NCBI RefSeq assembly: GCF_051903065.1
Contig: NZ_CP178438.1
Length of the DNA stretch: 64,000 bases
Strand: one strand, 5' to 3'
Origin: Escherichia coli
Lineage (GTDB): Bacteria; Pseudomonadota; Gammaproteobacteria; Enterobacterales; Enterobacteriaceae
Part shown: piece after piece, positions 33,351 through 34,004 of the stretch
Position numbering within the stretch: the stretch's first letter is position 1
How the letters are laid out: the number at the start of each line of letters is the position of its first letter
Translations under genes and position numbers: made by a program
Notes under the pieces: generated by a model
Databases searched by the model: none
The model's input: only the letters and a program-made list of their open reading frames with translations
Told to the model about the DNA's origin: nothing

Positions 33351-33371
33351 GCCTCCTGCGGTATGAAGTGG

Positions 33372-33578
33372 TCAACAAAAACTGGCCACCGCGTTAGAGT
33401 TTTTCCAGTATCGGTTTTCTAATTCGTTTGGCGGTAACCCACCATTATATTCGTGCGGTCTTAGTGCGCTGTAATATCCAACGATATAGTCCGTTATTGC
33501 GTGAGCTGCATCGCTGAAGCTTACATAGCCCGTCGCCGGCACCCATTCGTTCTTCAGACTCCTGAAGAAGCGCTCCAT
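33372..33578 (-). pseudogene. IS3-family transposase 3' fragment
   Basis: 68-aa [53 protein letters not shown] resembles the C-terminus of IS3-family OrfB; truncated on the IS1 side. Confidence 0.55.
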
Positions 33579-33599
33579 TGGGCTGTTATCCCAGCAGTT

Positions 33600-33973
33600 T
33601 CCGCGCAGACGATGACGTCACTGCCCGGCTGTATGCGCGAGGTTACCGACTGCGGCCTGAGTTTTTTAAGTGACGTAAAATCGTGTTGAGGCCAACGCCC
33701 ATAATGCGGGCTGTTGCCCGGCATCCAACGCCATTCATGGCCATATCAATGATTTTCTGGTGCGTACCGGGTTGAGAAGCGGTGTAAGTGAACTGCAGTT
33801 GCCATGTTTTACGGCAGTGAGAGCAGAGATAGCGCTGATGTCCGGCAGTGCTTTTGCCGTTACGCACCACCCCGTCAGTAGCTGAACGGGAGGGACAGCT
33901 GATAGAAACAGAAGCCACTGGAGCACCTCAAAAACACCATCATACACTAAATCAGTAAGTTGGCAGCATCACC
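33600..33973 (-). mobile_element. insA: truncated IS1 (about 374 bp: left IR, insA, start of insB), inverted relative to the other copies
   Basis: Reverse complement of the IS1 left end ccatcatacactaaatcagtaagttggcagcatcacc at 33937-33973; InsA-like ORF 33643-33918 with a C-to-R change; homology ends near 33600. Confidence 0.85.
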
Positions 33974-34004
33974 GACAAATGAGCCCATTGGAATAAGTTA
34001 GAAA

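Follow-up and report, generated by a model that had tools for sequence, protein, structure and literature searches.

In the cargo arm of what is most probably an Escherichia coli pipolin (64,000-nt stretch of contig NZ_CP178438.1, assembly GCF_051903065.1; this whole stretch is referred to as the window), the 654-bp gap between a type I restriction-modification (RM) operon and a two-gene DUF262 module is entirely occupied by two insertion sequence (IS) remnants plus short non-IS edges. With a probability of about 0.7, this gap represents a composite IS scar from an event that joined two defence modules and was followed by decay of the scar interior. The genes flanking the scar are all located on the minus strand, arranged in gene direction as hsdM, hsdS, a YecA/SEC-C protein gene, hsdR, an M48/YgjP-like metallopeptidase gene, the gap, a DUF262+DUF7834 gene, a DUF262-DUF1524 gene and hhe. 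An earlier reading of this DNA from its letters alone (sequence-only reading) had placed an IS3-family transposase 3' fragment next to a truncated IS1 between the peptidase gene and the DUF262 operon. This arrangement is confirmed, the region 33351–33999 being the whole M48-DUF262 intergenic gap, and the RefSeq annotation agrees with the two IS remnants in listing two pseudogenes there. The IS1 had been termed inverted, which holds relative to the plus strand of the window and to a further IS1 at 22172, but not relative to the IS3-family fragment and the flanking genes, all of which are co-oriented. The peptidase had been assigned to DUF45, i.e., to the correct family under the old name of PF01863 (YgjP-like/M48).

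IS1 is represented by nt 1–376 of 768 (33598–33973, minus strand), with 2 mismatches to the complete IS1 at 22172–22939. Its 23-bp left inverted repeat (GGTGATGCTGCCAACTTACTGAT, 33951–33973) is intact and identical to the repeat of the complete copy at 22172; the right inverted repeat, insB and the DDE domain are missing, rendering the fragment a remnant rather than a functional member of the family. The remaining insA' open reading frame (ORF; 33643–33918) matches the Pfam families Zn_ribbon_InsA (1.5e-19) and HTH_Tnp_IS1 (4.7e-31) and bears the exchange C11R in the zinc ribbon. Since C11R is common to the window, to the corresponding locus of strain 2018-02-2CC (L004) and to a plasmid-borne form of the scar (see below), one IS1 insertion event is indicated. 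The outer IS1 end is separated from the stop codon of the M48 gene by a 31-nt spacer (33974–34004, minus strand). Comparison of the post-stop sequences between islands revealed this spacer to be common to every island with this IS1 insertion and to be unlike the post-stop sequence of IS-free islands. An 8–9-bp target-site duplication was not found for the IS1 at the scar: its right end is missing in the window, and the complete IS1 of strain PSS-10 is flanked by unrelated 9-mers (TCATTTGTC vs ATGGTGGGT). As internal control, the IS1 at 53318–54085 in the pipolin core displays a perfect 9-bp duplication (TTGATATGG) and thus represents a simple recent insertion.

The second remnant (33364–33602, minus strand) corresponds to the terminal 239 nt (nt 1011–1249) of an IS911/ISEc52-like member of the IS3 family with a length of 1249 bp, with 99 % identity and 1 internal mismatch to the copy in strain 2018-02-2CC. 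In that strain, the element is complete, annotated with a programmed frameshift and delimited by the ends TGAAGTGG...CCACTTCA. The 3' end of the element is 93–95 % identical to copies named IS911 and ISEc52 by the Prokaryotic Genome Annotation Pipeline. In the window, the right inverted repeat (approximately 33364–33399) ends with ...CACTTCA, and its right end ...GTTGACCACTTCA pairs with the left end TGAAGTGGTTTACTG... of the complete copy; the TG...CA imperfect terminal repeats typical of the IS3 family are thus recognizable at the right end (33364). The coding remainder is a C-terminal OrfB ORF of 68 aa (33372–33578; rve_3, 5.7e-07) which aligns with positions 317–368 of the 369 positions of the NCBIfam model transpos_IS3 (6e-12; 45.5 bits vs a cutoff of 160). 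Hence, the last 68 OrfB codons alone remain, while OrfA and the rve core are gone. The near-identical matches to complete elements exclude that the two IS fragments are chance resemblances. The scar is predicted to be inert for transposition now, because its IS1 part retains one end and no transposase or DDE domain, and its IS3-family part one end and no catalytic core.

The two fragments share the pentamer GGAAA (33598–33602, minus strand), which occurs in IS1 (nt 372–376) as well as in the IS3-family element (nt 1011–1015). Strain 2018-02-2CC harbours what can be regarded as the precursor of this joint, i.e., IS1 nt 1–541 directly followed by the complete IS3-family element. Compared with this precursor, exactly 1180 bp are missing in the window, consisting of IS1 377–541 and IS3-family 1–1015. 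Judged from this alignment, the IS1/IS3 fusion is a single 1180-bp deletion at the short microhomology GGAAA. The view that the IS remnants are nested does not apply, since the fragments abut through a deletion and the IS3-family right end is followed by the DUF262 leader and not by IS1. The reciprocal joint predicted for an IS3-family element inside IS1 (IS3-family right end plus IS1 from nt 539) was constructed as a query and yielded no contiguous match in a set of 5426 complete E. coli genomes, which served for all genome comparisons unless stated otherwise. A 3-bp target-site duplication of the IS3-family element was not found in strain 2018-02-2CC either (TAT on the IS1 side, IS1 nt 539–541, vs TAC on the DUF262 side).

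The 751-bp junction of the window recurs at 99.9–100 % identity in 179 of the 5426 genomes from many laboratories and is therefore not an assembly artefact. The M48-IS1 joint is present in 196 genomes, the joint between IS1 nt 541 and the IS3-family left end, which marks the precursor state, in 42, and the joint between the IS3-family right end and the DUF262 gene in 254; the DUF262 operon was detected in 253 genomes. No genome matches the DUF262 5' end without the IS part, rendering this joint invariant (254/254). A third form of the scar is composed of IS1 1–240, a 255-bp IS110-family remnant and IS3-family 933–1249, and was found on one E. coli plasmid and on 56 plasmids of PLSDB; the 10 plasmids listed from the latter all belong to Klebsiella pneumoniae (e.g., IncF plasmid pKPN-262). 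As the window form and the plasmid form each keep sequence that is missing in the other, both descend independently from a precursor of the type preserved in strain 2018-02-2CC. The invariant outer joints together with the shared C11R imply that the founding fusion happened once and that the block then moved as a unit. The 56 plasmids are direct evidence for movement of the block between chromosome and plasmid and across genera. The plasmids carry the RM-scar-DUF262 block intact, and an IS1 variant with 87 % identity to IS1A interrupts Hhe behind its fourth codon. Additional rearrangements bounded by IS1, some of which eliminated the RM module or the DUF262/Hhe module, are seen in strains I3 and 2018-02-2CC. 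The presence of the precursor in 42 genomes, the third scar form and these additional IS1-linked rearrangements bear out the proposal of the sequence-only reading that insertion and deletion occurred repeatedly at this site.

The DUF262 side of the junction indicates what was lost during its formation. Homologues of the DUF262 pair constitute a conserved operon of two genes in other defence neighbourhoods, for instance those of Vogesella (90 % protein identity), Shewanella (86 %) and Enterobacter (78 %). These native operons possess an upstream region of their own (170–420 bp) and contain neither IS nor Hhe. In the window, the IS3-family right end is located 13 nt before the ATG of the first DUF262 gene. 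The intervening 13 nt (TACCGCAGGAGGC, 33351–33363, minus strand) include a Shine-Dalgarno sequence (AGGAGG, 33352–33357) and are the remnant of a leader homologous to that of Vogesella, the two leaders aligning right up to the IS end. The native promoter and upstream region of the DUF262 pair are thus, as far as can be deduced from these alignments, cut off by the IS3-family end. This has to be considered for the possibility that two unrelated IS landed independently in a pre-existing, permissive M48-DUF262 spacer and eroded there later, without any part in joining the modules. The region is intergenic and would tolerate IS insertions, and both elements are abundant in E. coli, a junction query (mostly IS sequence) matching about 82,000 places in 5071 genomes. 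However, neither element has a target duplication, the IS3-family element is flanked by IS1 sequence on one side and by the DUF262 leader on the other, and the DUF262 pair never occurs without the IS3-family end in E. coli. Moreover, the non-IS remainder of the gap amounts to merely 31 + 13 nt as opposed to the 170–420-bp upstream regions of the native homologues in unrelated contexts. Independent landing is accordingly considered improbable.

Loss of the native upstream region raises the question of how the DUF262 pair is transcribed. A promoter consensus scan of the coding strand between M48 and DUF262 retrieved only two sites. The first is a sigma-70 consensus match in the region of the IS1 left repeat (33939–33966, reading from 33966 to 33939), which we take to be the IS1 insA promoter; the second is a hybrid site (TTGACC-18-CATGAT) directed outward from the IS3-family right end. 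The latter was dismissed, since its -10 element overlaps the ATG and no later Met precedes the conserved DUF262 motif; a full-length message from this hybrid promoter is thus impossible. No terminator-like site was found by consensus scan on the coding strand between M48 and DUF262, and a terminator-like hairpin is present at 29737–29755 between the DUF262 pair and Hhe. The most likely origin of DUF262 transcripts would thus be the IS1 left-end promoter and/or read-through from hsdR-M48, in either case across the scar; this fits the layout of IS-free islands described below. Any effect that the scar still exerts is therefore likely to be transcriptional, as suggested by these predicted sites. 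IS3-family right ends carry an outward -35 element, and genes downstream of IS may be expressed from IS-borne promoters or by read-through. The present case resembles such systems in that TTGACC of the IS3-family right end lies 13 nt from the gene and the IS1 left-end promoter faces the DUF262 pair; it differs in that the hybrid -10 overlaps the start codon and in that a contribution of the IS1 promoter or of read-through is predicted from consensus sites.

The IS1 left-end promoter is repressed by InsA. One may speculate further that the scar is a retained regulatory bridge, the DUF262 pair being expressed solely as an extension of the RM-M48 operon and/or from the InsA-repressed IS1 promoter, an assumption that appears rather unlikely at present. 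If it applied, expression of the DUF262 pair would be coupled to that of the RM system and to the IS1 load of the cell, and the outer joints might be kept on chromosomes and Klebsiella plasmids because the arrangement works.

On the other side of the scar, the M48 gene (34005–34760, minus strand; Pfam PF01863, 6.7e-58, and annotation) comes last in the type I RM operon (hsdM-hsdS-YecA/SEC-C-hsdR-M48), where it overlaps the stop of hsdR (34757–38044, minus strand; annotation and PADLOC profile REase_I, 1373.6 bits). Together, hsdR and M48 form the conserved backbone side of the junction, which is present in about 545–560 genomes. Islands sharing it are 94–97 % identical over the hsdR-M48 match, with the M48 protein being identical in some cases. 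Homology among these islands ends at the M48 stop codon (34005–34007), or within 0–3 nt of it, and the sequence thereafter is wholly different. At least six cargo sets follow between M48 and yecA in related islands, including (i) a 612-aa GmrSD protein with PDDEXK_4 and an Mrr-like restriction endonuclease (REase) in NCTC10973 and others, (ii) a small ORF, a PD-(D/E)XK nuclease, an REase and MzaABCDE, (iii) a small ORF with a 623-aa DUF262 protein, (iv) a different locus altogether, (v) a complete IS1, an 83-bp IS3-family end, DprA and a RecQ-like helicase in strain PSS-10, and (vi) the IS1/IS3 scar, the DUF262 pair and Hhe of the window. The comparative alignment of the junction proposed by the sequence-only reading therefore supports its view of a boundary at which defence cassettes are exchanged: cargo differs among related islands and the scar itself has at least three internal variants, i.e., neither junction nor cargo is invariant. 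In IS-free islands, the first cargo gene is co-oriented with M48 and follows it after about 40–60 nt; this short spacing suggests that operon extension is the usual layout.

This boundary could also mean that the IS copies are the active agents, with recombination between dispersed IS1 or IS3-family copies, or IS1 adjacent deletion, repeatedly swapping the cargo behind M48. Strain PSS-10 may be taken to favour this possibility, since its complete IS1, together with the IS3-family end and the DprA/RecQ-like cargo, occupies the same site in the same orientation after M48 and lacks a target duplication. Along the same line, target duplications are absent from both IS of the scar as well as from the IS1A at 22172, which connects two unrelated segments, IS1-bounded rearrangements affect the scar region of strains I3 and 2018-02-2CC, and another IS1 cuts the plasmid-borne Hhe after codon 4. 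Pipolin defence genes have also been described as "usually found near transposases" (PMC11551731). On the other hand, five cargo sets in IS-free islands switch at the M48 stop with no IS nearby, and replacement via flanking homology between M48 and the att/yecA side suffices to explain the exchange. Furthermore, the outer joints of the scar are kept in hundreds of genomes and 56 plasmids, suggesting that the block moves as a unit, and PSS-10 is the sole case of other cargo behind the same IS1 insertion. Repeated swapping by the IS copies is thus conceivable but only tentatively so. As the cargo of IS-free islands changes at this position too, exchange does not require IS elements; they mark the cassette boundary and neither define nor cause it.

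Delivery of the DUF262-Hhe segment as an IS1 composite transposon was considered as well. Its arms would be the scar IS1 and the complete IS1A at 22172–22939 (plus strand, i.e., inverted relative to the scar IS1) or, on plasmids, the IS1 after the pair. Copies of IS1 indeed bracket the segment in the window (inverted) as well as on pKPN-262 (direct), and the left inverted repeat of the scar IS1 is intact. Yet a 9-bp outer duplication is absent, the flanks being gacaaatga vs CATGACTTC in the window and mismatching on pKPN-262, too. Most scar-carrying islands lack the IS1 at 22172, with Hhe adjoining the att repeat and yecA instead, and the IS1 on the plasmids, which truncates Hhe, shares only 87 % identity. 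A composite transposon is thus highly improbable. According to annotation and flank comparison, the IS1A at 22172–22939 itself has no target duplication (flanks CATGACTTC and GCCGCTTCA) and joins a remnant of an Mrr-like REase to a copy of the tRNA-proximal island end.

Based on these results, the composite scar may be envisaged to have formed as follows. The IS3-family element would first have entered the leader of the DUF262 pair at TAC, the probable target triplet, and cut the pair from its promoter. Rearrangement at the left end of the IS3-family element would then have attached the pair, now devoid of a promoter and followed by Hhe, to the IS1 located 3' of M48, either via recombination between two IS copies or via IS-end-mediated deletion. 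Thereafter, the inner scar would have decayed independently in different lineages. IS1 adjacent deletions and recombination between IS copies are known to leave elements without target duplications, and IS3-family elements usually move by a copy-out-paste-in mechanism, which by itself does not carry flanking genes. The junction shares with other IS-mediated rearrangements and scars the exact retention of IS ends at novel joints, the lack of target duplications, the truncated partners and a microhomology deletion; it differs in that the mechanism of the founding fusion is not fixed to one route.

Several points speak against this scenario. An IS-free DUF262 5' end of the E. coli type was not found by two exact-pattern scans of species-representative genomes, and the parental structure of an IS3-family element in IS1 was not found in the 5426 genomes. 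Either order of the IS1 and IS3-family events and more than one joining mechanism would fit the data. Typing of single-nucleotide polymorphisms in IS1, performed to decide whether PSS-10 has the same IS1 insertion, yielded patchy patterns compatible with gene conversion; such patterns suggest that lineage inference among IS1 copies is blurred. The genome counts depend on megablast coverage thresholds and, in IS1-rich genomes, on a limit of 40 pieces per record, and the classification covers all but about 33 of the 254 genomes with the IS3-DUF262 joint. Finally, the proposed read-through is predicted by consensus scans, and IS1 is polar.

The window is 100 % identical to the chromosome of E. 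coli 23CRST027. The island is most probably an E. coli pipolin with the scar in its cargo arm, and its gene set agrees with the published core model as outlined in PMC11551731. It is inserted between yecA and a tRNA cluster (Leu-Cys-Gly). A 131-bp segment (58624–58754) overlapping the 3' part of tRNA-Leu (58699–58785) is repeated at 23532–23662 and 21218–21350, with 96–97 % identity among the repeats; the copy at 23532–23662 (97 % identical to 58624–58754) represents the att direct repeat at the distal pipolin end. The tRNA-proximal genes encode a site-specific integrase, DUF2787, WYL and DUF726 proteins, a putative B-family DNA polymerase, an HTH protein and a second tyrosine recombinase. The polymerase (RefSeq: 866-aa "DNA polymerase type-B family protein") has no Pfam match and was identified by annotation. 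According to previous reports, E. coli pipolins are integrated at tRNA-Leu and possess att repeats; their core, which lies close to the tRNA, is conserved, and the cargo arm at the distal end varies (Flament-Simon et al. 2020, PMC7385651; Mateo-Caceres & Redrejo-Rodriguez 2024, PMC11551731), and bimodular pipolins are described as well (PMC11551731; PMC7385651). One of these reports (PMC11551731) lists type I RM, PDC-S12, mza, hhe and HEC-06 as cargo, notes that they are "usually found near transposases" and ascribes to them a patchy distribution as well as recent exchange with plasmids and conjugative elements. The present island conforms to enterobacterial pipolins with respect to (i) the tRNA-Leu site between pgsA and yecA with att direct repeats, (ii) the core beside the tRNA with two tyrosine recombinases, WYL, DUF2787 and a polymerase annotated as B-family, and (iii) a distal arm with type I RM, PDC-S12, Hhe, Mza and GmrSD-like genes near transposases, including patchy occurrence and plasmid exchange.

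The junction is therefore to be viewed as a commonplace IS scar within the cargo arm of an established family of mobile elements, for which cargo exchange near transposases has already been published. In the parts drawn on here, the published accounts (PMC11551731, PMC7385651) are at the gene-content level and contain no mention of this scar or of its precursor and variant forms, of the break at the stop codon of M48 or of the promoter loss of the DUF262 pair. Modest novelty is confined to three points: how the scar is built at base-pair resolution and how it evolved, how sharply the backbone ends at the M48 stop, and that the DUF262 pair has lost its promoter. The scar provides a base-pair-resolved example of cargo assembly in pipolin defence islands and has little significance otherwise: the DUF262 pair and Hhe were apparently welded on via IS elements and thereafter transferred as one block between E. 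coli chromosomes and IncF plasmids of Klebsiella. The scar is usable as a lineage marker for this block. Having lost its own promoter, the DUF262 pair may rely on the RM operon or on IS1 for its transcription.

The first gene of the DUF262 pair (31896–33350, minus strand) combines DUF262 (GmrSD_N) with DUF7834, as determined by Pfam, partial PADLOC matches only and the contexts of its homologues; the second (29861–31903, minus strand) combines GmrSD_N with GmrSD_C (DUF1524) according to Pfam and overlaps the first by 8 nt. In PADLOC, the two proteins match HEC-06/Orf5/SspE profiles, mainly with the N-terminal domain, and none of the NCBIfam models matches either of them. Both carry the GmrSD_N domain of GmrSD/BrxU/SspE-type DUF262-DUF1524 nucleases and the second also GmrSD_C, but the arrangement as a conserved pair (DUF262+DUF7834 followed by DUF262-DUF1524) differs from these nucleases, and the function is a prediction from domains. 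Hhe (23939–29686, RefSeq start at 29674, minus strand), a DUF4011 helicase-nuclease and single-gene anti-phage system, represents a separate module 3' of the DUF262 pair and was matched full length by PADLOC (4302.8 bits). Among the window proteins, PADLOC also matched the type I REase full length and assigned the YecA-like protein to PDC-S12. An Rfam scan of 33000–34300 revealed no RNA family at E ≤ 1.

The YecA/SEC-C (UPF0149) paralogue (38094–38777; PADLOC candidate PDC-S12, 1.9e-99) is encoded between hsdS and hsdR; yecA itself borders the island on the chromosome. In every island examined, the M48 peptidase gene, overlapping the hsdR stop, is kept. An extra gene of about 620 aa is inserted between the YecA-like gene and hsdR at loci L005, L007, L011, L016, L028 and L029; it is absent from the window (site 38044–38094). 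RefSeq names its product "cold shock domain-containing protein"; the match to this domain (CSD) is weak. The gene represents another optional insert within the RM operon. The hsdS gene (38774–40012 in the window) occurs in many alleles among islands with the identical IS scar (12 product lengths of 388 to 427 aa at loci L007–L024), indicating that hsdS turnover is much faster than scar decay.

On pKPN-262 (L039, 9610–22440), the block hsdM-hsdS-YecA-like-hsdR-M48-scar-DUF262 pair is located between finO and repA, as on IncF conjugative plasmids mostly of Klebsiella. The chromosomes of strains I3 (L040, 18368–25497) and 2018-02-2CC (L004, 19686–26028) each contain two M48-31 nt-IS1 joints with an inverted yehD-like fimbrial operon between them, where an unusually long feature (127–143 nt) annotated as tRNA-Ser or tRNA-OTHER is also found; in strain I3, the DUF262 pair and Hhe are apparently deleted. 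A metagenome contig (L021) with a shorter M48-DUF262 gap, at first taken as an IS-free variant, was discarded because this gap contains a run of N, i.e., an assembly gap. In islands of the NCTC10973 type (L003/L012/L014), a group II intron (ltrA) interrupts an ISEc52-like element, and a Thoeris-like pair (TIR + STALD/SIR2) is located upstream of hsdR in the position of hsdM/hsdS.

Just 3' of the Hhe stop, a segment of about 193 bp is present at loci L015, L018, L020 and L023 (about 233 bp at L004), which is absent from the window at 23925/23926. The att repeats 21218–21350 and 23532–23662 bracket a decayed second element (21218–23662). It comprises a 723-bp copy of the tRNA-proximal end (22940–23662, 97 % identical to 58033–58754), the complete IS1A and the 3' part of an Mrr-like REase (22001–22171 and further left) with 99.4 % identity to the cargo REase of NCTC10973-type islands. 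This second element looks like a tandem island, the interior of which was removed at IS1.

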